Positions 1 to 61,000 of a DNA stretch of 63,150 bases are shown here, piece by piece. A model generated the notes under the pieces. It worked only from the letters and a program-made list of their open reading frames with translations, had not been told where the DNA came from and did not search any database. A program made the translations under genes and the position numbers. This DNA is from a bacterium (GTDB taxonomy: Bacteria; UBA9089; CG2-30-40-21; SBAY01), in the NCBI GenBank assembly GCA_040755795.1, contig JBFLXS010000001.1:1-63150 (forward strand). Direction: 5' to 3'. Numbering within the stretch: the first letter of the stretch is position 1; each line of letters begins with the position of its first letter.

Positions 1-3000
1 CATAAGGTTGGGTATTAATGGTGAATGTGGTTGAGAAACTGCCGTAGGCATCTGTTGAGGTAAAGGTAATACTTGGTGTCGTGCCAAATTTTATACGAAT
101 AGTTTGACTGGCTCCAAATCCATTACCAGTTATGGTTACGATTAACCCTACCGTTCCTTCTGTTGGTGTAATTCCTGTAATAGCAGGCTCTATTCCGAAA
201 GTAATATAAGCCGGATAATTCGAGTTCAATCCTGTTGCCTTAATCGTTGTCGTCCCATACTTCTGGGTATCGATAGTAAAGGTAAGCGTAATTGACCCTG
301 ATTCTGCGGCAGTAACTGTATTAATGGTCAGGGTAGTCCCAAAATCTATTTGCACTAATTCACTACTTAAATAACCATTTCCATAGAGAGTAACTATCGT
401 GCCAACAGTTCCCGAGGTGGGAGTAATCTGGACTAACTTCGGTGCTATCTTAAACTGCAATGAATACGCCGATGTGCCGGTATTTATTCCCCAGGCGGTA
501 ATAGTAGTCGTCCCAATCCGTTGAACATCTACGGTGAAGGTAGTTGAGAACGACCCACATCCTTCTGAAGTAGTCATAGTAATAGTCTGCGTAGTTCCAA
601 ATTGAATTTGCACTGGCTCATTACCACCAAATCCATTACCTGCTACTGTAACCACACTACCAACTGTTCCTTCAGTTGGGGCAACTAAGATAATATTTGG
701 TCCAATAAAGTAGGTATTGCTTGCCGATACATTTACCTCTTCCACATCAACAGCAACAACCGTTGTCGTTCCATAAGGTTGTGTATCAACTGTAAATGTA
801 GTTGAGAAACTACCTTGTGCATAAGTAGATGTCGTCGTAATTGTCCTATTTGTCCCAAAGAGGATATGAATAGTATGACTTGCACCAAAACCATTACCGC
901 AAACCGTAACAATTGACCCAACATTGCCACCTACTGGTGTAACTACAGTAACACTTGCCTTTATAGTAAATATCTCCGTTGCAGAATTAAGTGGACAGGT
1001 TGCCTTAATTGTTGTAACCCCACTTTGTTGGGTATTAACCGTAAAGGTAACAGTAAATGTTCCGGAGGCATTAGTAGAAGCGGTAGTAATTGACCTGGTT
1101 GTTCCAAAATCAATCCGCACTGTTGAAGCGGAGCCAAAGCCATCACCTTCTAATATTACTATTGTTCCCACTATGCCTTGTTTTGGTGTTGATGTATAGA
1201 TTTTTGCCATAACATAGAAGACGTTAGATGCTCGTTTTTCAAGTTCAAATGGATCAAGCTGTTCTGTATTCCATGCAGTAAATGTAGTTGTGCCTGCTGG
1301 CTGTTGAACATTGAAATTATAGACTAAACTAAATGTCCCTGCCTGACTGGCATAGATACCACCATAAGGAGGATTTAGATTAAGAATATCTCCATCCTCA
1401 TCTTGGACTGTCCCAAAGTCAACATAAATTCCTTGACTTGCCGCATAACCTGTCCCAAAGAGTGTAATTTGTGTGCCTACAGTACCCGTCGTTGGGGACA
1501 CCCAAACTAACTCTGGAATTATCTTAAACCAATCATCTACCCCACCTAAATCATCATCCTCAACCCCGGAGGCAATATCTACTGCAGTAATCGTCGTTGT
1601 GCCATAAGATTGCGTATCAACTGTCCATGTAATATAAAATTCACCCTTATTATTAGCAGATGTAGTCGTAATCGTTGGTGTCCAACCAAATCCAATTTGC
1701 ACCAATCCACTACCGGTATAACCATTACCAGAAACAGTAACGATAGTCCCAACCGTGCCTTTAGTTGGACTAATATTCACAATATGCGGTAATATGCGTA
1801 AGATATCTGTTGCTTGCTCACGAGCAGTAGGTTCTTTTGGACCTATACCTGTAGCCGTCGTTGTGCCAAAGACCTGAATATCAATGGTAAATGTCTTTGT
1901 CCATGTCCCGGATGCATTAGTCGTGGCAATAGTAATGGTCGGATTATTACCAAAGGCAATACGGATATCGGCATTTTGTGTGTAGCCTCTACCTTCAATC
2001 GTAATTGTTGTGCCTACAGTCGCAGATTTAGGTGTAAGTGTGGTAATTACCGGTAAGATGAAGAAGTAGTTTCGTGCCCATTGCTCTGTGGTCATACCAA
2101 TAACTTTAATCGTTGTCGTCGCAAACGGCTGAGGTATATCTACTACACTCTGATAGAACCTCGCCGTAAATGTTCCTTGTGGAGAGACTCGCGGAGTATC
2201 TGGTTCAACAATCACAAATCCTGTATTAACAACTAAACCATACTCTGTCCCATAATCAATTTTTAGATTTTCACCATTTACACCTTCTCTACCAAAACCT
2301 GTTCCTTTAATAGTAATTATCGTGCCTATAGTTCCTGTAGTTGGACTAACTAAAGTAATTTCTGGAATTAGCACAAAGTATCTATCCTGGTCAGGTCCCT
2401 TCTGCCAGTATTCTCCCCATTTATCTACTTCCTGCGTATTAAGTCCTGTAGCCACAATCGTCTTGGTACCAAAGTATTGGGTATTGACGGTAAAGGTAAT
2501 AGCAAAAGTCCCGGTATCATTAGTTGAAACTGCGGTGATAGTCAAGGTTGTGCCTAAATCTATCTGCACTACCTCATTAGCACCATAACCATCACCTTGA
2601 ATGAGTATGAAATCACCCACCTGTGCTTTCCATCTATCTGGCACATCAAAGTGTAGCACTTCTGATTGCCGACTAACTAAGGTAATATGGGAATTTATCT
2701 TGAATAAGTCATCATCACGATGATTATCCAGATCAAATAAATCAGCCGCAATGATGGTATGTGTCCCGGCAGGCTGTGTATTTACTGTAAAGGTAACACT
2801 AAATGTTCCACAGGCATTGGTTGATACCACCGTAATAGTAGTCGTATTACCAAAAGTTACCCGCACTGTAGCCGTTGCCGCATAACCATCACCGGCTATG
2901 GTAACAATTGTCCCTACTGATTGTGCCCTTGGCGTTACCATCCAGATATGTGAAATTATCTTGAAGCAATCTACATCCCTATATTCTTCTGTATCAAATT

Positions 3001-4000
3001 GCCAATATTGCATCCCTCCTGGTATTTCACGAAATGCCTTAATCGTTATGATACCATAAGGTTGTGAATTAATCGTAAAGGTAATAGCAAATGTCCCATT
3101 ATAATTTGCTGTTTGCTGTATTATCATCCATGTTGTTCCAAATTCTATCGTTACAGTCCCTTGACGATGATAACCATTACCATAGACCATAATTGGCAAC
3201 CCTACTGTGCCGCTCGTAGCAGTCACATAAACAATGTTATGCGTAATCTTGAAATCTGTATGATATTGAGTCTGGGTAGTTTCCCCAACTGCATTAACCG
3301 TATGTGTGCCATAGCATTGTTCATCAACTGTCCATTGTGTCACAAAACTACCATTACCTGCGGCACTAACATTAGTAATACTCATATTTGTTCCAAACTC
3401 AATACGGATAAGTTCACTACCACCATAACCTGTTCCTTTAACCTCTACTGGAGTCCCAACGGTTCCTGTAAGAGGTGTAATCGTAATTCCTGAGGTAATC
3501 CTGAAGTAATCATAATCATCTGTAATCTGGCCTGTGGCTGTAATAGTAGTTGTCCCCACAGGTTGAGTATCAACCTCAAATTTTGCACTAAAGGTGCCAT
3601 TAGGTCCTACCGTGACAGTAGTAATACTTATGTGTGTTCCAAAATCAATCTGCACAATTTCATTTACCACATAACCACTTCCTGTAATAGTAACCATAGT
3701 CCCTATTTGCCCTGCAGGAGGAGTAACACTTATAATCTCTGCTTTTATAAAGAAAATATTAAATGCCTCTTGGTTGGACATACCTACAAGTGTTCCTCTA
3801 CTTTTTACTGTAGTAGTTCCTGCTGGCTGGGTATTAATAGTGAATATATAAGTAAACTGTCCAATACCATTACATGTAGTTATTATATTAAATTCAGCTG
3901 TAGTTCCAAACTTAATTTTTAGTTCATCCCCTGCATCATAACCATCACCATAAATAGTCACCCAACTTCCTACTGTCCCTTCTGTCGGTGAAACGGTATG
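1..4000 (-). repeat. Super-repeat A, copy 1 (the clearly alignable part of a 5,610-nt, 21-domain unit).
   Basis: It aligns colinearly with 5611-9610. For example, gatgtatagatttttgccataacatagaaga occurs at 1191 and 6801 (offset 5,610). The antisense landmark PVVG at 2343 matches 7953 (offset 5,610). 3167 matches 8771 (offset 5,604, a 6-nt in-frame indel). By eye about 80% nucleotide identity, fading beyond about 4000/9600. Confidence 0.8.
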
Positions 4001-7000
4001 AATACGGGCGATAATAGTAAAACTACCCATCAAAACTCTGCCTGAAGTAAGTCCTGTTACCGTAACACTCTTTGTTCCAAAGGTCTGAGTATCAACGGTA
4101 AATGTCAACGAGAAACTGCCATAGGCATCTGAACTAACCGTAGTTATAGTCGTATTAGCCCCAAACCTGACATGGATAGTCTCTGTAGCGGCAAATCCAT
4201 CACCTCTAATAGTAACTATTGTAGTTACTGTGCCTATGGTTGGCGTAAATAGTGTAAATTGCGATAGGATATTAAATGTATTTCTTGCCTGCTGACCTGT
4301 ATTTATACCCCTGGCAGTAATGGTTGTAATCCCATATCGTTGAGGATTGATAGTAAATGTAGTACTGAATGACCCTGAATCAGTCGTCTTCGTCACAATG
4401 ATACTCACCGTTGTTCCAAAGTCAACCTGAATCTTTTCACTTGCTCCAAATCCACTACCGGCTACTGTAACTATTGACCCCACCGTATTGGCTTGTGGCT
4501 CAACCTTGAATAATTCAGGTTTGATAACTATCGCCCGAGAATCTCGCACCAAATCAACCTCATTTATATCTGTGGCGATAATGGTTGTCGTGCCGTAAGG
4601 TTGCGTATTGATTGTGAAAGTAATTGTCCATGAGCCTTGTGGTTTAGAGATAACCGTTGTAATCGTCTTTGTCGTTCCAAAGTCAATCTGAATAGTATGA
4701 GTTGCACCAAATCCATTACCTGCCACTGTAATGATAGTTCCTACCGTTCCTTCTGTTGGCGTGTAAAGTATTATCTGCGGCAAGATAGTGATGGTAGCAA
4801 ATGCCTCTTCACTGCCCTTTGCCTTGATGGTCGTAATTCCATATCTCTGTGTATCGATAGTAAATGTAGTCGTGAAGCTACCTTCAGCATAGGTTGAAGT
4901 AGTTTGAATACTTGGTGTCGTGCCAAAATCAATATGAACCTTCTTGTATGCCCCATAACCATTGCCTTTGACCGTAATAATCGCACCCACAGTTCCTGAT
5001 GTTGGCGTTACAAAGATAACATTTGACTCGATACTTAAAGTCCCTTCTGCCTTTATTACCTTACTATCGCTATGAGCAACAACAGTAGTAATTCCGTAGC
5101 GTTGTGTATCTATGGTAAAGGTAGTAGTGAAGCTACCTTCAGCATAAGTTGAGGTAGTTTGAATAGTTAGTGTTTTCCCAAACTCTATCCGAATGATGGT
5201 TGAGGCATCATAACCATTACCTTTAACCGTAATCACCGTCCCCACAGTTCCAGAGGTAGGCGTAATAAGTATGATATTAGGTAGAATAGTTACACTTCCA
5301 TAGCAATGTAAGCCCTGGTCATCACCATGAGCACCTACTGTCGTTGTGCCATAAGGTTGAGTATCAATAGTAAATGTTGTGGAGAAACTTCCTTGTGCAT
5401 AGGTTGAGGTAAGTTGAATTGTTGGTGTTGTACCAAATTCTATCCTTATCGTCCTTGAGTTGCCATATCCATTACCTTGAATAGTAATGATTGTTCCAAC
5501 CGTGCCTTGCGTTGGTGATAAGTAGATAATATTGGGTAAAATAGTCAATGTCTTCTCTGCATTAATACCATCGCCATGTCCCTTTACTGTAGTTGTCCCA
5601 TAAGGTTGAGTATCGATAGTAAATGTGGTGGTGAAGCTACCTTCGGCATAAGTTGAAGTAAGTTTAATAGTTGGTGTTGTCCCAAACTCTATACGAATCC
5701 TTCTATAAGCCTCAAAACCATCACCCCTCACCGTAACTACCGTTCCAACTGTCCCTGTATTAGCGGTAACATAAACGATATTTGGCAGGATAAAGAATGT
5801 CAGGTTATCGGCACAGGCACCTGTAATTATCCCTGTGGCTTTAATAGTTGTCACACCATAAGGTTGTGTATTGATGGTAAATGTAGTGGTGAAACTACCT
5901 TCTAACTCTGCTGTCACAGTGGTAATCGTCATTGTCGTGCCAAAATCTACCTGGATTAACTCACCGGCTTTATATCCACCACCGCGTAATGTAACTACTA
6001 CACCCACCGTCCCTTCAGTTGCAGTTATTGAGACTAATTGTGGCTTGATAACATACTCAAACTTCCAACTGCTCTTACCGGTCATCACCCCAATTGCCTC
6101 AATAGTCGTCGTGCCTATCGGTTGAGTATCAACCGTAAAGGTGGTTGTAAAGCTACCGCAGTATTCTGCTGAAACTAAGGTAATTGTCTCTGTCGTTCCA
6201 AACTTAATTCTTACTAACTCACTTGAACCATAACCATTACCTCGAACTGTAACTACACTTCCAACGATTCCTTCTTTTGGAGTAATCAGTATAATCTCTG
6301 GAATAATTGTGAGTCTATCATCATCTGAGGCAATATCTCCTGCAATAGACTGGACATCCACTGCCACAATGGTCGTCGTGCCATAAGGCTGTGTATCAAT
6401 GGTGAAGGTGGTTGAGAAACTACCATGTGCATAAGTAGAAGTCATAGTAATCGTCTCATTAGTTCCAAAGAGTATATGAATCGTATGGCTGGCGCCAAAA
6501 CCATTACCTGTTACCGTAACTATTGTCCCTACAGTTGCTACCGTTGGTGTAACTAATGTAATTATTGGCTTAATCCTGAATGATTCCGTCGCAGAGTTCA
6601 GTGGGCAGGTTGCGGTAATTGTGGTATTGCCACTTTGCTGAGTATCAACCGTAAAGGTAATTGTCCATGTTCCAGAGGCGTTAGCAGAAACCGTAGTAAT
6701 TGACCTCGTCGTTCCAAAATCAATCCTCACGGTTGAAGCAGAACCAAACCCATCACCTTCTAATGTCACAATTGTGCCCACCGTGCCTTCTTTTGGTGTA
6801 GATGTATAGATTTTTGCCATAACATAGAAGATATTGGAGGCTCGTTTTTCAAATTCTTTAGGTCCAATTAAAATAGAATTCCAGGCGGTAAATGTGGTTG
6901 TGCCTGCTGGCTGTTGAACATCAATTGTATATATTAGACTGAATGTCCCGGCAAGAGAAGCCGTCCCATACACAGGTAACCAGGTTGCGCTCTCAGTTGC

Positions 7001-10000
7001 GTAGTCTTTATCTAATACTGTTCCAAAATCAACATATATTCCTTGAGTAACTGCATAGCCTGTGCCAAAGAGTGTAATTTGACTTCCCACAGTCCCTTTA
7101 GTCGGTGAAACCCAGACTAACTCTGGAATTATCTTGAACAGGTCATCTACTCCACCAAGGTCATCATCTTCTACTCCCGAAACAGTATCAGTAGCATAGA
7201 TAGTCTTTGTCCCATAGGATTGTGTATCAATAGTAAAGGTAATATTAAATTCACCCTTTGGATTTGCCGTTGTAGTTGTAATCGTCCGTGTCCAGCCAAA
7301 TCCAATTAATACCTCTCCACCACCCGTATAGCCGTTACCGTAAAGTGTAACTATCGTTCCTACTGTTCCAATAGTTGGAGTAACACTGACAATATGCGGT
7401 AATATGCACAAAGTATCTGTTGCTTGTTCGCGAGCAGTAGGTTCTTTTGGTCCTATAGCCGTAGCCGTTGTTATGCCAAATGCCTGAATATCAATGGTAA
7501 ATGTCCTGGTAAATGTCCCTGAATCATTAGTCGTAGCAATAGTAATGGTCGGATTATTACCAAAGGCAATCTGAATATCTGCATTTTGTGTATAGCCTCT
7601 ACCAGCAATCGTAATTGTCGTCCCTACAGTAGCAGACTTAGGAGTAAGTGTAGTAATTATGGGTAAGATAACGAAGTAATTGCGTGCCCACTGTGCAGTA
7701 CTACTTCCATAAACGGTAATAGTTGTCGTCCCAAATGGCTGAGGAATATTTACTGATGAAATGTCAAATTTCAAAGTAAATGTTCCTTCTGAAGTTACAT
7801 ATGGTTGTTCAAGACTATATGGCTCAATTCCATCAGCTCCAATAAATGGCTCCGTTCCAAACCCAATCTTTAAATCTTCACCATCAATTGGATTCCTTCT
7901 CCCAAAACCAGTTCCCTTAATAGTAATTATAGTTCCTACGGTTCCCGTAGTTGGAGTAACTACAGTAATTTCTGGAATGAGAACAAAGTATCTATATTGG
8001 TCAGGTCCTTTATTCCAGTATTCACCCCACTTATCTACTTCCTGAGTGTTAAGTCCTGTAGCCACAATCGTCTTGGTGCCAAAGTATTGGGTATTAACCG
8101 TAAAGATAGTAGCAAATGTCCCGGCATCATTAGTTGAAATTGTGGTTATACTTATGGCTGCACCTAAATCTATCTGCACTACCTCATTAGCACCATACCC
8201 ATCACCCGTAATAAGTATCTCATCTCCTACCTGTGCCTTCCATCTATCTGGCACATCAAAATGAGGCACTTCTGACTGCCGACTGACTAAGGTAATATGC
8301 GAATTTATCTTAAATTCATCAATATCACGATGATTATCCAAATCATATAAATCAGCCGCCACAATGGTATGTGTCCCACTATGTTGTGTATTCACCGTAA
8401 AGGTAATACTAAATGTCCCACAGACATCTGTTGATACCACCGTAATAGTAGTAGTTTGACCAAATGTTACCCGCACTGTAGCCATAGCCGCATAACCATC
8501 ACCGGCTATGGTTACAATTGTTCCTACTGACTGTGCCCTTGGTGTTACTAACCAGATATGTGAAATTATCTTAAAGGAATCTATATCTCGATAGTCTGAA
8601 TTATCATAATCTTGAACAAGAATTCCCCTTTCGCGATATGCCTTAATCGTTGTTGAACCATACGGTTGGCTATTTACCGTAAATGTAATACTAAATGTCC
8701 CATTATAACTTGCCAACTTTTGTTTCATCGTTAGGGTAGTCCCAAATTCTATCGTTACTGTCCCCTGACGATGATAACCATTTCCATAGACTGTAATTGG
8801 CAATCCTACTGTGCCTTCTGTAGCTGTCACATAAACAATATTATGCTTAATCTTGAATTCCCGCTGAGACTCTGTCGTAGTATTCATACCAACTGCCTTT
8901 ACGGTATGAGTTCCATAGCACTGTTCATCCACTGTAAATTGGGTAGTAAATCTACCATTTACTTCTGAGGTAATTGTAGTAATGGTTCGATTTGTTCCAA
9001 ATTCTATGCGGATAAGCTCACTGCCACCATAACCTGTTCCACTAACCGTCACTATTGTTCCCACTGTGCCAGTATAAGGTGTAATTATAATACCAGATGC
9101 AATTGTAAAGTAGCTATAATCTTCCGTAATCTGACCTTTGGCATTAACAGTAGTTGTCCCAACCGGCTGAATATCAACCGTAAATGTGGCACTAAATGTC
9201 CCATTATGTCCTGCCGTCGCAGTTGTAATAGTCTTATGTGTTCCAAAATCAATCCGCACAACTTCATTTGCTAGATAACCTGTTCCTTTAACTACAACCT
9301 CCTGTTCTATCGGTCCAGAAGTAGGCTCAACACTTATCACATCAGCCATAATGAAGAATTTATTATATGCCTCTTGCTCAGAAGCATTATATCCTGGTTG
9401 TCCTTTACTCTTAACAGTCGTAGTCCCTGCAGGTTGAGTATCAACCGTAAAGTAATGTGTGAATTGTCCATTTACATTGCAAGCATAATCTTTAGGAATT
9501 TCAACATCAGTCCCAAATGTAAGTCTTATCTTTTCACCATCTGCATATCCATCACCCATTACCGTTACTTTCGTCCCTACTGTCTGCTGATATGGACTAA
9601 CCACATATATCCTGGCAATAACCTTGAAATAGCCATAATCTACTCTTCCACTATTCATCCCTGTTGCCTTTACGGTATGAGTGCCATAAACCTGTAAATC
9701 TACCGTAAAGGTAGTTGAAAAACTACCGTAGGCATCAGTAGAAGTCATCGTAATCGTAAGAGTTTTTCCAAAATCAATACAAATACCCTCACTTGCACCA
9801 TAACCATTTCCGGTAATTGTTACAATATCATATATCTTCTCACCACTAATAGCATTAATTAGATATTGGACCACACCACTGGTAGGAGTAATAAGTGTAA
9901 TCTTCTGTAAGATAGTAAATGTAAAGGTAGCAACAACATTTTCCGCTACTGACAATGTCGATGTTCCTCTACCTTTAACAAGGGTAGGACCATATTCCTG

Positions 10001-13000
10001 AGTATCTACGGTAAAGATAACCATAAATGCCCCTGCCCCATCTGTTCGGGTAGTAGTAATGGTTAAAGTTGTGCCAAAATCAACCTCTATGCCTTCTGAT
10101 GTACCAAAACCATTACCCGCCACAGTAACCAGGATACCAACAGTCCCTGATTGAGGAGTAACTGAAACAATATTAGGTAGTATCCGCAGGGTATAAGTTG
10201 AATATTGCGCCCTGGTATGGACACCAACAACTTTGATAGATGTAGTGCCATAAGGTTGAACATCAATAGTAAATGTTTTTTCAAAGGTGCCATCAAATGC
10301 ACTCATCCAAATAGTTCTTGTCGGATTAATTCCAAATTCTAACCGTAATTGCTCATTATAACCAAAACCTGTTCCTTTTACTTGAATTGATGCACCTACT
10401 GTTCCTGAAAGTGGCGCTACATCATATATATGCGGTAAGATAGTAATAAGTGTCGAAGTGCCATCCTGTGAAGTAAGACCAACCGCAAAAATAGTAGTTG
10501 TGCCATAAACCTGTGCATTTATAGTAAATGTAGTTGTCCATGACCCATTATTCTCTGCTACGGTAGTAGTTATTGTATTCTTAGTCCCAAATTGTATCCG
10601 AATTTGTTCATTAGAATAATACCCATTACCACTTATGGTAATTATTGTTCCTACACTACCCTGCGTTGGTGTAACAGAAATAATCTCTGACCTTATCCTG
10701 TAAATATATCTTTCATCAGACTGCCTGGTGGATGACCCTACGGCTATAATACTTGTAGTTCCATAAGATTGGGTATTAACGGTAAATATGGCGGTAAAAC
10801 TACCAAAGGCAGTGCTGGTAACCGGAGTAATAGTCCGTTCCGTCCCGAAGATAATACTAATCATTTCAGTAGCACCAAACCCATTACCCGCAACTGTAAC
10901 CCAACTACCAACAGTTCCTTCTGTAGGAACTATAGAGACAATATTAGGCAGGACAACAAAAGTAGAAGTTGCTGTAGCCGGATCTATCACACCTAAAACA
11001 GCCGCATCAGTTGCTATAACAGTAGTAGTTCCATAAGGTTGTGCATCTATCGGGAAGGTAACGGTGAATGAACCACCCTCTGTCATATCCATAGATGCAA
11101 TATTATAGGTAGTCCCAAAGTGAATCTTGGCATCATTTGCCGGGTAATTGAATCCATTACCATAAACCGTAACTACTTTACCGACTGTCCCGGAAGTAGG
11201 AGTAACATAAACTATTTGAGGTAGAATTTCATAGTTATTCATTCCAGAAGAAGATACATCCTTAGATATACCTCTTTCATCTATCGCCAGAATATCCCTT
11301 AAGGGATAATGTCTCTGTTCAGGAACCGTAAATGTAGTAGAGAAACTACCCTGTGCATAAGAAGATGTTAGTGTCACTGTCGCTCTATCAATTCCAATCT
11401 TACCAAATAACACAGCAATAGTCTGGGAGCCATTAAATCCATTACCGGCTATGGTAACCTTACTACCCACCGTCCCGGACCGTGGTGTATAGAAGACAAT
11501 ATTAGGCAGAATCTTAAATGTATGTTTGGCACTAATGCCTTTTGTATCAACTGCAAGAATAGTCATAGTTCCATACGGTTGTGTATCAATAGTAAATGTA
11601 ACCGTAAATGAACCAGCACTATCCGTTGATACTGAAGTAATACTTGATGTCGTTCCAAAATCTACTCTCACATAATCTGACCCTGTAAATCCATCACCCT
11701 TAATGGTAATTATAGTACCAACCGTTCCCTGATTTGGAGAAACATCAATTATTCTGGATAACATCTTAAAGAAGACGGTTGCAGTAGTTCCCGTATTTAA
11801 TCCTTTAGCCACAATAGTAACAGTTCCAACCGGTTGTCCATCAGCACTAAATGTAGCACTAAATGAACCATAATCACCTTCAGTTTGTACTTCGGTCCTA
11901 GTTATAGTAGTTCCAAATGAGATTCGTATTACTTCATTTGGCATTCCGACTCCACCAAACCCATTACCGGCAATGGTAATCTCAGTTCCCACATTTCCTT
12001 CTTGTGGATTAAAGACAACAATATTTGGTTGTATCTTAAACTTATCTACTGCCTCTACATTTTGTGCATCCTTAGCCTTAATCTTACAAGCATCACCACT
12101 TGCATAGTCTCCGTATGCATCAGCCCGCTGAGTATTGACGGTAAATGTAGTTGTCCAACTACCATACGCTGTAGAGGTAACAGTTGTAATTGACGAATGC
12201 ATACCAAATTGTACGACAATAGGACTTGTGGCATTGAATCCATTCCCACTCAAAGTCACGATTGTTCCTACAGAGCCTTGAGCCGGGCTGACATAGATAA
12301 TCTTTGGCAGTATCTTGTAGGTATTGGTAGCAAAGCCTAATGAGCCGTAGCCGGTGATGGTAGTTGTGCCGTAAGGCTGGGTATTGATGGTAAATGAAAC
12401 ACTAAATGTGCCGTTGACATTTGCTGATGTCGTCTGAATCGTCGGACTCGTTCCAAAGCCAATCCGCACCAACCCTTCTTTCGGATACCCATTGGCAGTA
12501 ATCGTCACCACACTCCCAACCGTGCCTTCGGTTAACTCTACCTTCCAGATTGCCGGCAGAATAGTAAAGTAACCGTAGTCTGATTTTTCTGCTGTTTCAG
12601 ATGCTTTAACCGTAGTTGTCCCACCTGGTTGAGTATTTACAGTAAATGTAATAGCAAATGTTCCATCTGCACTCGATTCTGCTGTCTGAACCTGATGTAT
12701 TTCATCTGTTCCAAAATAAATGTATATCTCGGATATACTTTGTCCGAAACCATTTGCTTCTCCTGTAACTATTGTCCCCACTGTTCCTTGAAGCGGTGAG
12801 ATTAATCTAACCTTCGATGTAATCTTAAATGTATTAGTAGCAGCCGATTCGCCACAGACAGTTCCTGTACCTATGATGAGTTTATTACCATAGCTCTGCG
12901 TATCTACGGTAAATATAGCGGTAAGCAATCCTATGTTATCTGCGGTAGCAATAGTAATAGTCCTTGTCTTACCAAAACCAATTAGAACCTGTTCTGATAC

Positions 13001-49000: not shown

Positions 49001-52000
49001 AATCTCACCAGTTGCCCTGATAGTTGTTGTACTAAACGGCTGAGTATCTACGGTAAATGTCAAGGTAAATGAACCATTCACCGTCGCAGAGCCTGTAGTA
49101 AATGTTCCTGTAGTGCCAAACTTAAAGAGGATAGTTTCTGATAAACCATACCCATTACCAGATACTGTAACTACACTACCTACTGTAGCCGCAGTTGGTG
49201 TGATATTGATAATCTTTGGCTGGATTACAAATGGCAGTGTGGTAGTAGTATTAGTTGCCCGTTCTCCGCTTGCAGCACCTTTAGCCACAATTGTTGTTGT
49301 CCCGTAAGGTTGAGTATCTATAGTAAAGGTAAGAGTAAATGAGCCATAGGCTGTAGTTACCGCACTACTTATAGTTTGCGTGCCAGTGACCAGATTCTGT
49401 GTTGTCCCAAAATCTATCCAGATATTCTCGGTCATCCCATACCCATTCCCGGCTACGGTAACCACACTTCCTACTGTGCCTTTAGATGGTGTAACTACGA
49501 TAATATTAGCGATGATAGTAAATGTCCCTTCATTCGTAGGTAACCCGGATGTTAAACCATAAGCCCAAATAGTTTTCGTCCCATACGGTTGGGTATCCAC
49601 AGTAAATTTCGTTGTAAATGTTCCACCAGATACCTGACTGGCTGGAACGATAGTAATTGTTGTCTTATCCCCAAAACTTATCCGCACAGACTCATTACTC
49701 TTAAACCCATCTGCCGAAATAGTAACATAACTTCCTACACTGCCTCTTGTTGGAGTAATTTGATAAATCCTTGCCTGAACCTGGAATGTAGTGGTTGCCG
49801 CCCAAATTCCATTAACATCATCATAGGCAGTAATCGTACAGGTGCCTGCCGCCTGCGTATCTACGGTAAAGGTAATCGTAAATGACCCATATTGAGTACT
49901 GCTAATAGTATTAATCGTAGGAGTCGTCCCAAATTTTATCCTTATAGTCTGGGATAACCCAAATCCATTACCACTTACCGTAAGCACTGTTCCCACAGGT
50001 CCTGCTGGTTGATTCAAATAAATAATATTGGGTAATATCCTACAGGTCTTAGTTGCCGGATATTTATAGGTATTTCCTCTACCTATAATAGTTGTTGTTC
50101 CATAAGGTTGTGTATCAATAGTAAAGGTAACATTAAATGACCCTACTTCCTCAGCTACAGCAATCGTTATACTCTGTCTCGTCCCAAAATCTATTCTTGT
50201 TTGCTCCTGGTTGCCATAGCCCCTACCCCAAATAGTTATAATTGTTCCCACAATACCCTCTGGTGGCTCAACCTTCCAGATATCCGGTAAAATAAAGAAA
50301 CTTGAGTAAGCAGTAGGAGTTCCTTCACTTATTGAGTCCTTGTTATGAACTGTAATGGTCGTAGTCCCATACGGCTGAGATTTATCAATCACAAAGGTAA
50401 AATAACCAGGTGTATCGGCTTTATCAACACTCCCATCATTATTTATCCTCAGCCACTCATATTTATCTATCTCATTACCAAAGTCTAAAACTGCGTTCAG
50501 ATGTGTCCCATCGTAATAATAACCATCACCCCACACTGTTACCGTTATGCCTACTGAACCCTGAGTTGGCGAGACCAAATAAATTCTTGGAAGTATCTTG
50601 AATGTTCGAGTGCCTATCTGTTGAGTGAGCGTCCCTTTCATTTCTACAGTCTTTGACCCATACATTCGTCTATCTATGGTAAATGTAGTACTAAATGACC
50701 CAAAAACAGTAGTAGATATAGTTCCTCGTATACTCTCGGCAATTCCACCTCCACTAATTGTAATCGAAATCTCCTCACTTGCCCCATAACCATTACCTGC
50801 CACTGTAACTACTGTGGTTACAGAGCCAATGGTCGGAGTAAACAAGATTATATTTGAGTAAATCTTGAAGAAATAGTCTGATACCGTCCCATACTGTTGA
50901 CTACCAAGTCCTGTAACCTTAAGTGTTGTCGTGCCATAAGGCTGGGTATTAACAGTAAATGTAGTGGAGAATGACCCTTCTGCATAGGTTGAAGTAGTTA
51001 ATAAAGTAACATTAGTTCCAAAATCTATCTGGATAAGTTCTGTGGCACCAAATCCATTCCCGGCTATGGTAACTATTGTTCCTACTGTTCCGCTTTGTGG
51101 TGAGAATAGGAATAGATTAGAGGTAATTCCTACACTACCAATAGATTCAAAATACTCTCCATAAGTAGAACTTACTTTAACCGTATGCGTCCCAAAATGT
51201 TGAGTAGTAATAGTAAATTTAGTTGAGAAAGAACCATAAGCAGTAGAGTTAAATCCCGGAAGCGCATCTGTCCCAAAATTTATGGATATTTGTGTTGCAC
51301 TACCAAATCCATTACCAGTAATAGTCACAAAACTACCCACTGTGCCAGTTCTTGGTGACAAATAAATAATGATATTAACAATCTTGAAATAGCCGGTTGA
51401 AGTCCCTGATGCAGAAACACCCACAGCATTAATTGTCGTTGTCCCATAAGGTTGCGTATCCGTAGTAAATGAAGTAGTAAATGTCCCACAGGCATTGGCT
51501 TGACTTACGGTTATACTCCGTTTTGTCCCAAAATCTATCCGAATAGTCTCAGAGGCACTAAAACCTTCTCCATTTATGGTTACTACTGTCCCCACCGTTC
51601 CAAAAGAAGGTGTAACAAATGTTAAATTTGAAGTTATAGTAAGTGAAAAAGTCCCAGGAGCCTTTTGAGTGGTATCACTACCATAAGCCGTGATAGTTTT
51701 AAGACCATATCCCTGCGTATCAACCGTAAAGGTAGTTGTCCATGACCCAAAGGCTTGCGTTGAGGTCTGAGTTATGGTAGCAGTTGTCCCAAAATGAATC
51801 ACAATTACCTCACTTGCCCCAAAACCATTACCCTGGACAGTAACTATTGTTCCCACTGAACCGGAAACTGGACTGACAAAAAAGATGTTAGGCAAGATGA
51901 CTAACGAGGTATTTGTCTGAGTTCCTGGGCCCTTACTACAAATTGTCGTCGTCCCATATTTTTGAGTATCAACCGTAAAATATATGACAAACCTTCCCTG

Positions 52001-55000
52001 CCCAAATTGACCACCACTATTACCGGTAGTTATCGTCCTGGTTGTCCCAAAATGTATAGAAATAACTTCTGCACCACCAAATCCTGTTCCTTCTACCGTT
52101 ACTACCAATCCAACCGTTCCGGAGGTAGGTGTCACCCAAACATTAGGATTAATAGTAAAAGATTCTGTAGCTACTCGCTGAGAAGTAAGTCCACCAGCCC
52201 TTACCTCCTTATCTCCTACCGCTTGTGTATCTATAGTAAATGTTTGAGAAAAAGTCCCATTATTCGTCGTCGCCGTAGCAATACCCTCTGTAATTCCAAA
52301 TCTAATTTGGACATATTCTGAGGCCCCAAATCCTTGACCATAGATAGTCACAATTGTCCCTACCGTGCCTGCTCGAGGTGAAATATCGTAAATCTTACCT
52401 AAAACATGGAACAAGGTAGTAGCTGATGTGCCTGTATTAACTCCAGTTGCCTTAACCGTAACCGTCGCCGGCTGAGTAAGAACAGTAAAGGTGTAGCTAA
52501 AAGCACCATCGGAATCTGCACCTGTTGTTCCCGTATCCCCCGCACTCAGCGCCCCAAAATCTACATCCACTACCTCACTCAACCCATAGCCATTACCCTT
52601 TATCTCCACCAAAATCCCTATTGTTCCAGAAGTAGGAGAAATGCTGTAGATATTAGGTTGGATAGTAATTGAACCATAAAATGTCTGGATAGATCCTGCC
52701 GCGTAAACCTTGATAGTAGTAGTTCCAAAAGGTTGAATATCTACTGTAAAAGTAGTACTAATAGTACCTTTTGAACTTGCTCCAGTCATTTGACGATATG
52801 GATCTCCATCCGCCAACTTCGTCCCCATCTTAATTACTATAGTTTCTAGACTACTATATCCATCACCAGTTAAAGTAATATATGTTCCTACTGTTCCCGC
52901 ATTAGGAGATATAGAAATTATCCTTCCTTTTATCTTAAAATAATTAACCACTTCACGAATAATATCAAATCCCGTACCAGTAACAGTAGTTGAACCATAA
53001 GGTTGAGTATCAACATCAAACTTATTACTTGTTACTATATCTCCATACACATTTGCTTGTGCTGTGCAAATAGAACTCACTATACCAAATCCTATTTTTA
53101 TATATTCATTTTCTTTAAATCCATTACCAGAAACAGTAACTTTTGTCCCAATGGTTCCTTCAGATGGAGTAACACAGGTTATATTTGGAATAATAGTAAA
53201 TGTCCCCTCGGTTCTTATACCAGAAGTATCTGTCCCATAAACTGTTTTTGTTCCACCTGGTTGACCAGAAGAAATAGTCAGTTCCACTGTTAAAGAACCC
53301 GATGTAGCCGCCTTTTTAGTATTATCAATCTGCGAACCAATAACCAGTTGTATCACTCCAGGAGTAGGTGTAAATCCATTTCCAATAATAGTTACAATAG
53401 AACCAATAGTTCCTTGAGATGGAGTAACTAAAATCATCTTTGGTGTTATCTTAAAGGTAGTATTGGTAGCATAAGCTCCATCAGCACCTGTTGCAGAGAT
53501 TGTTGTTGTTCCATAAGGCTGAACATCGGTAGTGAATATTAAACTGATACTACCTAATCTATTGGAGGTAGTAGTAGTAATTGTCAGTGTTGACCCAAAT
53601 CCAATAGTCACTAACTCTGATGAACCATATCCATTACCCCAGACCATTACCTGAGAACCCACTGTCCCAGAACTCGGTGTAATATCCACTATCTTTGCCA
53701 GGATGAAGAAACTACTTGTCCCTCGGGTATAATTATCGGTTGCAACAATAGTATGACTCCCATAAGGCTGGAGGTTTACAGTGAAGGAAATAGTAAATGA
53801 GCCAAGGTTAGTTGAACTACCATAGGAGGTAAGTGGGCTATAATTACCAAAGTTAATAGTAATATCGGATGAAACTCCAAATCCATTACCAAAGACAGTC
53901 ACAGAACTTCCCACTGTCCCCAATGTAGGTTCCACCTTATAAATATTTCCAATTATGGTAAAGAGACAAACATTTTCTGATGAGGGGCTACTAAGCGATA
54001 CAGTAGTAGTTCCATAAGGTTGTGTATCAACCGTAAATGACTTAACAAATCCACCTGCCGCATTTGTTGAAGTAGAAGATATTGTTTTGGTAGTCCCAAA
54101 GTCTATATAAACATCTACAGATTGGGCAAAACCACTCCCGGTTACCGTAAGTATAGTTCCCACAGAACCTATAGTTGGTGAAATACTAATCTGTCCTCTT
54201 ATGGTAAATGTTCCTTCACCATAATGTCCAGAAGTAAACCCATAAGCAGTAATAGTTTTAACCCCAGCATTTTGTCCTGGAACAGTCAATGTCACGCTAA
54301 ATGAACCATTGGGACTACTGTATATTGTTGTCCAGGTTGTTGGACCACCAAAGGTTAATTTTATCTGTTCGTTATTCCCAAAACCATCACCTTTTACCGT
54401 TACTTCACTCCCTACGGTCCCTATTGTTGGAGTTATCTGCCAAATTCTACCTGTTACTACAAAAGTAGTTGTCGCTGTTAAACCTGATTTTATACCCGTA
54501 GCCTTAATAGTAGTAGTTGCCGCTTGAACATCCGCAGTAAAGGTAACTGAAAATGTCCCCTTTTCACTAAGTAAATTATAACCTACTTCCTTTCTATTTA
54601 TGGTAGTCCCAAAATCAATTCTAATGCCATCTGAATCACCAATAGATTTACTCCCAAAGCCTTCTCCATCTATAGTAATAGTTGTTCCCACTATCCCAGA
54701 AGTAGGAGTAATAACAATCTTTGTTTGAATCTTAAAAGTAGTAGCTGCTGTAGCACCACCTTGCCCTTCTACCATTACCACAATACTTGGTGTCCCAACC
54801 TGAGTAATGGTAGTAAATGTTACCGTGAAACTACCTTTTTCCGATGTAGTCCCTATTCCAACTACATCTCCCCCAAATTTTACCGTTATAGCCTCTGTTG
54901 GGCTAAATCCATCTCCCGAAATCGTTACTCGAATACCTATTGTGCCGCTTTGAGGTGAAATCTGAATTATGTTACCTCTCACAGTAAATGTAGCATATGC

Positions 55001-58000
55001 TTCTCGTCCTTCAGGAGGCGACATAATCCCCGCAATTCCGATTACTCTTTCCCCAAATGGATATATAGGAAATGATGTATAAGCAAATGAAAAATCTCCA
55101 TTAATTGTTGCTTGAGCAGAACCATCCTTGTCCACAGGAGTAGGAGTACGATCAATGGCATAGTAATAATATTCATTATATTTAAGACCATTCCCATAAA
55201 TTTCTACTCCCGTTCCTATTGTCCCATAACTGGGTGAAACTTTATAGATATTGGCAACTATATTAAAAGTATTATTTGTTGATGACTGGCCAGAACTTGA
55301 ACCAATAGCGGTAATAGTCGTTCCTGCCATCCGATTAGAAGACTGGGTATTCACGCTAAATTCTACCGTAAATGTCCCGGCTGAATTTGTTGTGGCAAAG
55401 GCAATACTACTATGATTACCAAATTCTATCCTGATACTTTCTGTCGTCAGATACCCATTTCCATAAACCGTTACCCTACTACTAACTACCCCTTTTAGAG
55501 GTGTAACTAAGTATATTCCTCCCACAATACAAAAAGCAGTCCCGGTTGCCACAGAAGAGCCTTGCAGACCTGTCAGTTTAATCGTAGTAGTGCCAAAAGG
55601 TTGTGTATCTATCGTAAATGTCGCGGTAAGAGACCCCGAAACTGTTGAATTAAATGTTCCCATATTATGCATCCAGAGTCCAAAGGTAATATTTATCCCG
55701 CTTGTAGCCTCAAATCCATTACCTTGTACAGTAACTAATGTCCCTACACTCCCTCTGTTTGGACTAACACTGATGATATGAGATAAGATACGATAAGTTG
55801 AGGTAGCTGCAGTAATCCAACTCATATTTACTGCCGTCACCTTTATAGTCGTCGTGCCATAAGGATGACTCCTTCCACCTGCGGTATTAGTAAATACAAT
55901 ACTAAATGTCCCATTGACATTCGTTGTCCCTGGATTTCCTGGATTTATCACCTGAATAGTACCAAAATCAATTAAAATCTGCCCATTAGCCAGGAATCCT
56001 TCACCTTCTACTGTAACTATTGCCCCTACTATCCCTGAAATTGGTGTTAGATAAGTAATCCTCTGTTTTACATTAAAGGTAGCCTCTGGTGTGGTCAAAG
56101 AAGCAATTCCTCTTGCCTTAACTGTCGTAGTTGCTGGTTGCTGAACTACAGTGAAAACAGCAGTAAATGACCCTATCGTATCTGTTGTCGTCTGTGCTAT
56201 TGTGGTCACTAATCCAAAGTCTATTTCTACCCGTTCCTCCTGCTTAAACCCATTTCCATAAACAGTAATCAATTCACCAACAGAAGCACTTCCAGGATTA
56301 ATCCGATAGATATTACCAATTATCTTAAACCTATCTGTATCCGTAGCACTTGCACCCCAGGTATCTCTAACATTGATAGTTGTTGAGCCAAAAGGCTGGG
56401 TATCTACGGTAAATGTTACCGAGAATGTCCCATAAGCAGAGGTAGTAAAGGTATTGCGTGGATGAGCAGGAATGCCTAAAGTTATTGTTCCCAATGTTGC
56501 CGAGCCAAATCCACTACCTCTTACCGTAACATAACTCCCTACTGTCCCTTGAGCAGGTGTAATCTCAGGAAATGCCGACATCACACTAAATGTCCCTTCG
56601 CTAAACCTACCCGAGGTAAATCCTCGAGCCAGGATTGTCCTTGTCCCATACGGCTGGTCCTGTGTAGTAAAAGCAATACTGAATGTCCCATTAGAATTAC
56701 TCGTCCCTATGCCTATATTTGTTATATTCCCAAAATCCAGTCTAATGGCTTCACTTATGCCATACCCCTGTCCCAATACTGTAATCACCCTGCCAATCGT
56801 TCCAGAAGAAGGAGTAACCTGATAAATTGATGCTTGAACAAAGAAGGCAGTTGTCCTGGTTGTTCCGGAGAGCATCCCGCGAGCTGTAATGCTTATCGTT
56901 GCGGGCTGTTGTAATACCGTAAGCACACAGGTGAATGACCCAAGTCCATCTGTATTAACCTGCCATTGATTGCTAAAGGTACCAAAATCTACCTGAACTT
57001 GCTCACTTGCCTTATACCCATTTCCATACAATGTTACCAACTTCCCTACTGTTCCAGTATTTGCTGTTACCCAGATATTACCAGTAATAGCAAATGTGGT
57101 TGTAGTGGCCTGAGCACCAGAAGAAATACCTTTGGCTACTATCGTTGCTGTGCCTAGAGGTTGTTTTGGCACAGTAAACTCAATGGTAAATGTCCCGGAA
57201 GAAGATACTGTCTTACTCCCTCTAAATTCAGCCGGAATACCAAAATAAACCTCCACTGTCTCACTTACCCCATAGCCATTACCGGATAAAGTTACAAAAG
57301 AACCAACTGTTCCTGAGATAGGCGTTACTTCAATTATATTGGCAAGAATAGTAATTGTATCTGTTGCTTCATAACCTCCTGAATTTCCAGCTACATCTTT
57401 AACCGTTATAGTAGCTGTCCCATATACCTGGGTGTTTATGGTAAAAGTAAAAGTAAAACTCCCTGCACTACCAGGAGAAGATGGACTCGTTCGCTCCTCA
57501 TCTCTTAAATAGACTATAAGATTAGCATTACCACTAAATCCATCTCCCATAACTGTAATTGTTACACCTACTATTCCTGATTGAGGTGTAGTTGAAGTAA
57601 TATGTGGTATTATCTTAAATTCTGTCTGTTTCTCCTGGTAGGAACTTGACACCCCCTTAACCTTGATGGTCTTACTCCCATACGGCTCTAAGGGAATAGT
57701 GAAGGTGATGGTAAATGAACCGCAGGCATTAGTGGTAACTACCGTAGTCAGCGTCCCGGTCGTGCCAAAAACAACATTTATCTGCTCTGTCGCACCGTAG
57801 CCAGTGCCGTTTATGGTTACCAAATCACCAACATTACCTATATACGGGCTAACCGGGGTAATATCCGCTCTGATGGCAAATGTGGTCGTAGCAGATTGAC
57901 CTGTGGCAACACTTATTGCTTTAATCGTATGCGTGCCATAACGCTGGGTATCAATTGTAAAAGTTACACTAAAACTACCATAAGGGCCAAAGGAACTCGT

Positions 58001-61000
58001 CGTAGTAATAGTCATTGTATTACCAAAATCTATCTGGATTAACTCTGTAGGCCCATAATTAACACCTTCCACTGTTATAACTGTTCCTACTGTACCGGTA
58101 GAAGGTGTAACCAGACTAATAGCCCTTACCTTCCACATAGTAATAGTGCCCAGTGTCTGGGTAGTTGAACCTAATATTCCTGTCCCCATTACAGTTGCAG
58201 TTCCGGTAATATAACCAGTCCTTGTTCCTGTCAAGGAAATAGTGGCATTATTTTTAGCCGGGTCAACCGGGATATAAACACAACCTGTCCCTGCATTTAT
58301 TGGCGTAGGAGTTCTCCAGCTACTACTTCCATAGACATCGGTTAAATTAGTCGATGTCGCTATAGTTACTCCGACATCATTCATCAAATTCCCAAATTCA
58401 TCAACTACCTTCACCTTTAAGACAAACTTTAAGCCATCACCATTGCTGGCTAAAAATGAAGGTATGGTTTGTGTGCCACCGGTAGCCGTGCCAACCTGAC
58501 TGCTTGTTCCCGTAACATAACCCTTCTTTGAGTATTGTGCCTGGAAACCTGTCCCTGTTCCAACCGCAATATACCAGGATGAGGTTGATGTTCCCCAAAC
58601 AGGTTGTTTAATATAAGATACCTCTGTAGTTGACCCTGGGATGAGTAATTTCACCGACTCGGTGCCAGTCGAAGGACCTTGTAATGTCAAAGTGCCACCT
58701 AACTCATCCTGCACCGTAGCTATTTTTACCGCATATTTCAAACTACCATCCGGCCCCATAAATTTAGGTCGCATCTGTAAAGTCTTGCTGGCAGTTACCG
58801 AAGCGGTTGACATAGTGATGACATAGCCATCTTTCCAGTACTGCCCCCAAACCGTGCCAGTAGCGGCGATGTACCAACTTCCACCACTGAATGTTTGTGT
58901 GCCACCATCGAGATAAGTAACCTCTTGTGTGCCCGTTGATGTCCCAAACAACCTCACCGTATCCGTCGCCGCAGGGGTTAAAGTATAACCCAACTCATCC
59001 ATCACATCACCACTGGAGACCTTAAAGGCAAAGAGAAGTTTTGGATTATGGGAAGTAGCATCAAAAGAATTTAAGGGACTATCAAAAGCAAGAGTTCTTT
59101 GATCAGCGCCACTACTTTGAGAAAACGTAAGGGTAGTAAGAGTTCCTACATATCCCTCTTTATCAATCCTTATCCTCCCACTCATGTCCGGAGTAATCGC
59201 TATATACCCCATTTGATTGGTAATAGTAGAGGTAATTATACTAAATGATCCTGTAGAACTGAAAGTTGTATTAGTTGAAGATAAAGCCAATGTGCCATTT
59301 AACTCATTAAGTGCACCAACAATCTTTAAATTAAATTGTAGACCTTTTATATTAGATGTTCCTAATTCAGAAATGAGAGTACTTCTGGCTGGATAATCAC
59401 CCATATTAATTATTATTTGGCCGGTAGAGGTAGCTATAATTCCATTAGATTCCTGCAATCCCACATTTGTATTTTCTGCATATACCCAACCTGAACGTCG
59501 TATGGACAATGTCCCCCTATCTTGAGTATCTTTCCAATACAATATATTTTGGACACTACCCGTATAGGTTTTTGTAGCCGGAATAGCTTCTCTAAATCTA
59601 CATGTAGTCAAAGAACTATAATCCACATTTTGCCCTAATTCATCTCTAACAACTACTTTTAATCCATATTTTAGCCCAGGTCCATCAAATCTGGCATTAA
59701 ATTTATCTGGCAAGCCTTCATCATAATCCACCGTACTCTGTGTTCCCGCAGATGGAGTTAAAGTAGCACCTGTTGTTACAAATCCTTTCACTGTAATATT
59801 TAATGTCCCATAAACAGTAGTTGTTGCCGCTACATAACCTATATTATTTTCAATCGTCCATGTCCCAATAACAAATCCACCTGATGCAGATATAAATGCC
59901 GCATCAGTAGGATTTATTAATCCTGCTAATGTTTCAGTTCCACCTAATTCATCCGTTACTCCAATTACCTTAATATTAAATTCTAATCCTTTAATGGTAT
60001 AAGTTGCCATTCGTGGAGTAAGAGAAGAAGTAGCAAGGGTAGAAGTTGCTACCATATCTATACAGACTTGATTAGCAGTACCAGTAGTTATACTTCCTAA
60101 CCCAAAATGGGTACAGGTAGCATTAACATATCCTGCCTTTTCAATGGTTAGAGTACTACCTGTTCCATTTGTATCTGCCCAATACAATGTAGTTCCCGTA
60201 TAAGTAGCCGGATTATAACCTCTAAATGTTGCCTTCCCTAAATTGAGATAATCAAAACTTGAAGTCCCGCCCAACTCATTACGCACTGTCACCTTTAATC
60301 CAAATTTCATTCTCGGTGCAATTTTCATCGCGGTAGGAAATTCTGTAGCAGTCCCAAATACTATAGTTGTCTGAGTCGCACCTGTAAGAGTTATAGTCGC
60401 ACTTGTATCTACATATCCAGTCTGTCGCACCGTTAAAGTCCCCGCTGGAGTAGTAAAACTTCCAGCCAAATACCAGATATTATCCTTAACTGTCTGCGTA
60501 GCAATTATAAAGCCTTCTGGAGTAAAAGGCAAACTGCTCGTCAAAGTCATTGTCCTGACTAACTCATCTGTTACTCCTAAAACTTTGATATTAAATTCTA
60601 AACCTTTAACCGTATATGTCGCTCTTGGTGGTGTTGTCTCTTCCTGCGTAATACCAAGAGGAGAAACAGTCCCTGTAGTATCCATCTTAATTACAATCTG
60701 GGTTTTAGAACCTGTCTCAATAAATCTCAATCCTCCATGCGTAACAGTTGCATATACATATCCTGTTTTATAAATATTTAATTCACCAATCCCATAAGTA
60801 TCCGCCCAATAATATGTTGTATCTGTTACTGTTGCTGGAGGTTGACCATCAAATAATTTAGTCGTCAAACTCTCACTCCCAAATCCCAATTTATTCCCTA
60901 ATTCATCTGCTACTATTACTTTCAAACCAAATGGTAAACAGGAAGCTACATAACTTGCTCCAATTGAAGGGAAAGGTGATGTATATTCTACACTCCTTAT

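Follow-up and report, generated by a model that had tools for sequence, protein, structure and literature searches.

What kind of gene runs through more than 60 kb of bacterial DNA without a stop codon, and what could its product do for the cell? The question was raised by positions 1 to 63,150 of contig JBFLXS010000001.1 (assembly GCA_040755795.1); this whole stretch of 63,150 nucleotides is called the window below. The host is an uncultured bacterium, probably Desantisbacteria-like. The window was found to be an uninterrupted internal piece of one giant gene on the minus strand, and most of it encoded 221 tandem immunoglobulin-like (Ig-like) domains of the IPT/TIG family.

The giant open reading frame and its domain array

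Six-frame translation showed that frame 3 of the minus strand contained 0 stops over 21,049 codons, while the other five frames contained 866-2799 stops each, with a longest open run of 142 codons. From the base composition of the strand, the probability of 21,049 stop-free codons was about 1e-637. The GC content of the three codon positions was 0.42/0.51/0.27, and the encoded fragment had a mass of 2.22 MDa, an isoelectric point (pI) of 5.3 and a threonine content of 18.7%. Plus-strand open stretches of 138-142 codons (3068-3919, 9275-9694 and 51905-52318) merely shadow the giant frame on the minus strand and were not regarded as genes. The two main features, in plus-strand numbering as throughout the text, were as follows.

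2..63148, minus strand: a single open reading frame (ORF) fragment of 21,049 codons, from six-frame translation; start and stop both lie outside the window
2..58126, minus strand: an array of 221 tandem IPT/TIG-type Ig-like domains, amino acids (aa) 1675-21049, from a self-built hidden Markov model (HMM), Pfam TIG, domain D of cyclodextrin glycosyltransferase (CGTase), AlphaFold2 and Foldseek

The HMM used for counting was trained on the window's own copies. It counted 220 complete domains and one last domain clipped by the window edge, so the array extends past the window. The domains had a median length of 86 aa (range 81-111, a unit of about 87 aa), the longer copies carrying loop insertions. 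Most were spaced at 83-91 aa, and no unmatched gap exceeded 15 aa. The consensus was PxIxxVTPxxGTVGTxVTVxGNGYGxxExIxIxFGTTxTITxxxxxxxGSFTxTFTVDTQPYGTTTIxAxGxxxxxxxxxxFxI. Domains followed each other without a linker, with a conserved proline at each junction, and no other domain type was found inside 2..58126. Mean pairwise identity among the copies was 42% at the amino acid level and 43% between neighbours, with only 4% of neighbouring pairs above 60%; at the DNA level the copies were about 60-76% identical. Low identity between neighbours is expected where arrays must avoid inter-domain misfolding.

For the first 23 domains (2,042 aa), Pfam gave a TIG (PF01833) score of 143.1 bits, above the gathering cutoff of 20.9. 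When copies were searched singly, 64 of 150 had TIG as their best family at E<=0.01, the lowest value being 3.3e-08, and a few were assigned to Big_6 or Cadherin-like instead. Two 1,000-aa samples of the array had no Pfam match, many copies being below detection; because so many escape Pfam, the domain represents a divergent TIG subfamily that is partly missed by standard annotation. A profile of 150 copies matched domain D of CGTase in the PDB, a classic TIG/E-set domain. AlphaFold2 was given three consecutive domains with an alignment of 73 in-window triples. The model was all-beta, with about seven strands per domain, a predicted local distance difference test (pLDDT) score of 92.7 and a predicted template modelling (pTM) score of 0.82; each domain was thus predicted to adopt the seven-stranded Ig-like beta-sandwich of IPT/TIG domains. 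Foldseek matches of this model included the RII region of MpIBP (5irb), a Lap extender (6xi3), SiiE (2yn5) and a plexin IPT domain (5l7n), followed by complement macroglobulin (MG) domains and Ig receptors. These results placed the array domains in the IPT/TIG (E-set) Ig-like family, as a divergent subfamily.

Searches of the 21,049 aa revealed no transmembrane-like, coiled-coil-like, low-complexity, RTX or LPxTG-type elements, and the ORF translation contained no serine/threonine runs and no helix-rich stretches. The highest hydropathy windows (Kyte-Doolittle, 19 residues, about 1.7-1.8) were considered as transmembrane segments and rejected, as they were domain A-strands (IILITPTSGTVG) and not helices. 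No GGxGxDxUx RTX nonapeptide was present in the 21,049 aa, such motifs normally lying near the C-terminus, beyond the window.

A first-pass annotation had described about 218 consecutive Ig-like (IPT/TIG-like) domains at 2..58126, with no other domain type, coiled coil or low-complexity spacer. The array was indeed present at these coordinates, and the proposed number was close to the 221 obtained here; the strand, which had been left unstated, is the minus strand, and the ORF is larger, reaching 63148. Pfam TIG, the CGTase domain D match, the AlphaFold2 model and Foldseek all agreed with the proposed domain identity. Signs to the contrary (no Ig or E-set similarity, folds other than a beta-sandwich, interspersed domains) were looked for, and none applied inside 2..58126. 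The absence of coiled coils and low-complexity spacers extended to the whole fragment. The absence of other domain types held within the array and not for the protein, in which other beta-rich repeats occupy 58127..63148.

Self-comparison of the window revealed two long tandem duplications within the array.

19446..30832, minus strand: an old tandem segmental duplication of about 21 domains (~105-126 vs 126-147), offset ~5.5 kb, 70% nucleotide identity
500..9556, minus strand: a second tandem segmental duplication with a 21-domain offset (~187-200 vs 208-221), offset ~5.6 kb, 76% nucleotide identity

In the first, 19446-25318 paired with 24981-30832, and the ratio of nonsynonymous to synonymous substitutions (dN/dS) of the paired domains was 0.09-0.34. 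In the second, 500-3949 paired with 6101-9556, with a dN/dS of 0.13-0.22. The duplicated domain copies have been under purifying selection since duplication. Both duplications, which are independent, share a unit of exactly 21 domains (~5.5-5.6 kb), for which a recombination register and a structural period are candidate causes. A pervasive titin-like super-repeat was rejected, since the two local duplications fully account for the lag-21 signal and no signal appeared at lags 42 and 63.

Repeat arrays mis-assemble easily, the relatives described below were broken up in every short-read metagenome-assembled genome (MAG), and a near-perfect 140-nt repeat lies at the window edge. It was therefore considered whether the array had been inflated by mis-assembly, or whether the gene was a decaying pseudogene that had lost expression. 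Because DNA identity among the copies was only about 60-76%, every copy is unique and hence assemblable, and the self-comparison contained no near-identical long repeat suggestive of mis-assembly, the best long self-matches being 70-76%. A 63-kb stop-free frame and dN/dS values of 0.09-0.34 are incompatible with a pseudogene. The divergence of the copies and the purifying selection on the duplicated ones argue for a real gene; explanation by artefact or decay has largely been refuted already and is scarcely credible.

The remaining part of the ORF, upstream of the array in the protein, consisted of repeats of another kind.

58127..62515, minus strand: 14 copies of a distinct ~97-115-aa beta-rich repeat, aa 212-1674
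62516..63148, minus strand: the N-terminal-most 211 aa, repeats with an 88-aa period, including a near-perfect ~140-nt direct repeat at the window edge

The 14 copies carried the motif GLxFxLKVxVxDELG...Y(W)A...G(Y/W)(I/V) and formed two alternating subtypes followed by three divergent copies. These non-TIG repeats had no significant match in Pfam, NCBIfam or the PDB, and neither a single-sequence nor a profile search among 5.8 billion proteins found a homologue. Comparison with the TIG-like profile showed the two to be unrelated (hhalign probability 3.7%). The AlphaFold2 model of a repeat pair, in which all predicted elements were beta strands, was unusable (pLDDT 42). A resemblance to CarboxypepD_reg was seen by eye and is not claimed, because the matches to Big_1, CarboxypepD_reg and MG4 were scattered and sub-threshold. 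In the direct repeat at the window edge, 62747-62886 and 63012-63150 are offset by 264-265 nt and shared 97.9% identity, with 125 nt at 100%. Possible causes are that an 88-aa unit was duplicated very recently, or that the assembly is faulty where the window or contig ends.

Relatives of the array and their termini

A scan of GTDB genomes for related loci, using 10 consensus-like copies as query, revealed stretches of 10-20 kb that were wholly open and filled with the TIG-like domain (about 79 copies in every 20 kb). Array stretches occurred in MAG Yes70-11 on each of four contigs (57, 33, 13.5 and 9.7 kb), with open arrays on those of 57, 33 and 9.7 kb (loci L011, L018 and L012); in MAG Modern_marine.mb.176, open arrays lay on contigs of 56 and 9.8 kb (L008, L009 and L017). 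A 23.5-kb scaffold of Candidatus (Ca.) Desantisbacteria GCA_016208205.1 (L022) was open over the ~16 kb retrieved, gene calls filled the scaffold, and the entire scaffold appears to be one gene fragment. Its open frame is divided into partial proteins of 5,854 and 1,987 aa by a 20-N gap in JACQYP010000058.1 (L022:9981-10000). All related arrays run off contig ends, and the giant-array family is therefore systematically fragmented.

The closest proteins were entries named 'hypothetical protein, partial' on contigs of about 1 kb, from Ca. Desantisbacteria, Nitrospirota and unclassified bacterial MAGs, with at most 57-68% identity to individual window domains. When 1.84 billion representative proteins were scanned exhaustively with HMMER, 8,664 contained the TIG-like domain; the best 150 of these had at most 74 copies (7,284 aa), and those of the closest subfamily at most 26. 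This library evidently lacked some giant fragments, the 5,854-aa Desantisbacteria product not being listed. A metagenome scan returned small proteins only, with one or two TIG-like domains each. Array fragments were also binned in MAGs labelled Woesearchaeota, Cyanobacteriota and Nitrospira (P0025, L007 and L002/L016). Such short repeat-rich contigs were probably mis-binned, which makes the taxonomic range of the family uncertain. On a 374-kb contig, a complete protein of 6,156 aa (L027:6001-24471) had about 65 TIG-like domains of a more distant kind; its gene adjoins a Cdc6/Orc1-type gene and is followed by a second TIG-containing gene (947 aa); this 65-copy protein is probably archaeal.

Since both termini of the window protein lie outside the window, its secretion and anchoring were inferred from relatives. 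Two contigs of Modern_marine.mb.176 that the public assembly keeps separate share 38 identical nt in frame, with which contig 315 ends (JAHIZN010000315.1, end of L028) and contig 457 begins (JAHIZN010000457.1, start of L017). The merged ORF of 3,511 aa started with MDGRPKQFIFILIAALMVLGSVMTASA, judged by eye to be a Sec-type signal peptide, then passed directly into a TIG-like array and ran off the end. Several smaller proteins of the TIG subfamily also bore signal peptides.

A possible C-terminus was found on NODE_33 of Yes70-11 (L021), where an array entered at the contig edge and was followed by about 14 tandem repeats of ~115 aa (L021:1850-6700) and then by a C-terminal domain (CTD) of the type IX secretion system (T9SS) type. 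This domain matched the PorU-CTD region (E 1.4e-11), TIGR04183 (22.7 bits vs a cutoff of 23, borderline) and CHU_C (2.7e-4). The downstream gene encoded an outer-membrane protein of the PorV/PorQ family (141 bits vs a cutoff of 90). The ~115-aa repeats, with the motif '...F.F.V.YtD.d.d.P..GYPkV.I...G.Y.Y.FeA.D..G..A.G...', had no match in Pfam or NCBIfam. A tail of the form 'YPNP...SGIYIY...KGKiGViK' closed smaller proteins with the same TIG subfamily (L004, L006, L015, L016 and L020), and the CTD of L002 passed the Pfam cutoff for Por_Secre_tail (PF18962; 31 bits vs 27).

Proposed function and alternative explanations

With moderate confidence, we favour the interpretation that the product is a secreted cell-surface fibre with T9SS-type anchoring, acting as a passive extender or tether with a stalk of about 0.8-1.0 µm. 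The giant protein would be exported through a Sec signal peptide, and would cross and attach to the outer membrane by means of a T9SS-type C-terminal sorting domain and a PorV-family partner. Because such a domain would anchor the protein, the C-terminus would be proximal to the cell and the N-terminal repeats distal. The stalk would consist of at least 221 rigidly concatenated IPT/TIG beta-sandwich domains, with the non-TIG repeats (58127..63148) as its far end. As in fibrillar adhesins, and like MpIBP RII, the fibre would serve as a passive extender that keeps the binding region at its distal end well away from the cell, in contact with a surface, a partner or a prey cell; it might otherwise build an extracellular mesh.

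The stalk looks like a continuous rod, because linkers and gaps above 15 aa are absent, the three-domain pTM was 0.82 and neighbour identity was 43%. In MpIBP RII, four Ig-like repeats span about 190 Å, so that each takes up about 47.5 Å, and the full set of about 120 reaches about 0.6 µm (PMC4083281). At 3.5-4.5 nm per domain, the length of the present array was inferred to be 0.8-1.0 µm if extended. The 0.8-0.9 µm put forward in the first-pass annotation is reasonable arithmetic given the MpIBP RII spacing, and is conditional on an extended shape. That annotation had also suggested a tether or adhesin. The structural part of its interpretation was borne out by independent tests and the functional part less so: the Sec signal peptides and T9SS-type CTDs of relatives and one porV-family neighbour speak for it only indirectly, while neither an adhesive domain nor an anchor was found in the window.

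Several observations weigh against the fibre interpretation. The window fragment, which holds neither terminus, showed neither a signal peptide nor an anchor, nor any domain for sorting or adhesion, and no MpIBP-type Ca2+-site motif was evident in the array. In the relative whose N-terminus was recovered, TIG domains come right after the signal peptide, while the window protein has other repeats upstream. The locus with the T9SS-type CTD (L021) was linked to the giant Yes70-11 contigs solely through the shared MAG and similar coverage. Over long stretches, the relatives shared 36-41% identity with the window protein, roughly what any pair of copies shows. They are thus not established as orthologues, and the window protein may have termini unlike theirs.

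The same export signals would apply equally to an extracellular coat or matrix (a sheath, an S-layer-like mesh or a biofilm scaffold) in which many copies of the protein lie around or between cells and the array provides bulk or spacing instead of reach. The window holds stalk-type domains only, with no recognisable adhesive domain, and a threonine-rich protein (18.7%) is compatible with a glycosylated coat. Known coats are built of small self-assembling subunits, so that a polypeptide of more than 2 MDa would be a costly bulk unit, and the distinct N-terminal repeat block better fits a differentiated tip; a coat was considered unlikely. The array might also be the backbone of a scaffoldin-like platform that docks other secreted proteins, as in a cellulosome. 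Dockerin-type giant proteins have been described in Omnitrophota (10.1101/2023.11.21.568195), smaller TIG-like proteins of related MAGs end in a dockerin-like 'GDVNNDGxVNIGD' (L003:11900-12046 and L005:2150-2288, seen by eye only), and P0014 was labelled a cohesin-domain protein by its source, a label that Pfam did not confirm. Pfam found neither cohesin nor dockerin in the window, P0014, L003 or L005, and docking as the role of the array is quite improbable. The dockerin-like ends and the cohesin label could, in their own right, hint at a cohesin-dockerin system in the organisms of the related MAGs.

The remaining alternative reverses the polarity of the fibre. In giant adhesins of the LapA/MpIBP/SiiE class, secreted by the type I secretion system (T1SS) and carrying RTX repeats, the N-terminus is held in the outer membrane and the C-terminal part binds the ligand. 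MpIBP RII, SiiE and the Lap extender were among the closest structural matches, and the overall extender logic is the same. On the other hand, the 21,049 aa contained 0 RTX nonapeptides, the domains are TIG and not of BIg or VCBS type, and the relatives bear Sec signal peptides and T9SS-type CTDs, not T1SS signals. Membership of this class is accordingly very improbable.

Comparison with known systems and implications

The proposed surface fibre comes closest in function to the Ig-stalk adhesins (MpIBP, LapA and SiiE) and the T9SS surface filaments. Like the former, the window protein is one polypeptide made up mostly of a head-to-tail extender of ~85-105-aa Ig-like beta-sandwiches, and its model matched 5irb, 6xi3 and 2yn5. 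Its copy number (at least 221) is nearly double the ~120 repeats of MpIBP. The copies of those adhesins are identical and of BIg type, whereas the window copies are diverged (42%) and of IPT/TIG type; with this mean amino acid identity, the array also lacks the highly identical tandem repeats that define periscope proteins. The window fragment has no RTX repeats or evident Ca2+-bridged junctions, and in place of T1SS its relatives indicate Sec and a T9SS-type CTD.

SprB of Flavobacterium johnsoniae is a surface filament of about 6,500 aa and a T9SS cargo. Filaments of this type resemble the proposed fibre as very large, repetitive, beta-rich surface proteins with Sec export, a C-terminal T9SS domain and PorV-family partners, the CTD and porV being seen here in relatives only. 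The window fragment is more than three times longer than SprB, and its lineage lies outside Bacteroidota. Titin, an intracellular protein of eukaryotes, combines Ig with Fn3 domains and also contains a kinase and a PEVK spring. Titin and the window array share hundreds of tandem Ig-fold domains, low neighbour identity and local super-repeat duplications; unlike titin, the array is of a single domain type, and bacterial secretion signals occur in its relatives. Fibrillar adhesins have TIG among their listed stalk domains (Monzon and Bateman, PMC9210967). The window protein shares with these a tandem Ig-like stalk (221 domains) and a predicted extracellular location; it differs in that no adhesive domain or anchor was identified in the window, and in a copy number orders of magnitude above that of typical members.

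Giant genes have by now been well documented in Omnitrophota and other phyla, and the proteins of Omnitrophota reach 85,804 and 147,155 aa (West-Roberts et al. 2023, 10.1101/2023.11.21.568195; Nielsen and Lui 2026). The described classes are multi-enzyme, HEAT/TPR, and dockerin or TSP3 types with many transmembrane regions; the highest copy number reported for a single Pfam domain is about 41, and TIG arrays are mentioned in neither paper. The window gene is similar to those of the 'tandem-repeat scaffold' class in its size (above 60 kb), in its uncultured small-genome lineage near the Planctomycetes-Verrucomicrobia-Chlamydiae (PVC) group, and in being dominated by repeats that have diverged at the nucleotide level. 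The Omnitrophota-type giants have transmembrane regions, a SecA-like helicase, HEAT, TPR, dockerin and enzyme domains, none of which were found here, and about 41 copies vs 221. The features by which Archaeovorin and Dockerin-type giants are defined (10.1101/2023.11.21.568195), namely transmembrane regions, a SecA DEAD-like helicase, HEAT, TPR, dockerin and TSP3, were undetected in the 21,049 aa. We found no paper on giant proteins of Desantisbacteria, and no relevant one on the related assemblies and MAGs. The window thus presents an extender principle that is already known, here with a TIG-type domain in record copy number and in a little-known lineage.

A bolder proposal is held only tentatively. 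The array could be the largest prokaryotic array of a single type of Ig domain and belong to an undescribed group of Desantisbacteria-type 'TIG giants', with genes possibly above 100 kb, whose single-polypeptide fibres of more than 1 µm would be exported by a T9SS-like route outside Bacteroidota and serve small cells as a 'fishing line' to a host or prey.

If the fibre is real and extended, one polypeptide would measure about 1 µm, which equals or exceeds the length of the cell producing it, and this fragment alone would be nearly twice the length of the best-studied extender (MpIBP, ~120 repeats, ~0.6 µm). An Ig-stalk class would then join the catalogue of giant bacterial genes, now centred on multi-enzyme, HEAT/TPR and dockerin types. 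The prevalence of such genes is underestimated, because short-read MAGs shatter them into fragments of about 1 kb named 'hypothetical protein, partial'. With its diverged copies, the array would be a natural counterpart of titin in which to study how misfolding is avoided among hundreds of adjacent beta-sandwich domains, and the T9SS-type sorting signals of the relatives give a hint of the way in which a polypeptide above 2 MDa might cross the outer membrane and remain on it.

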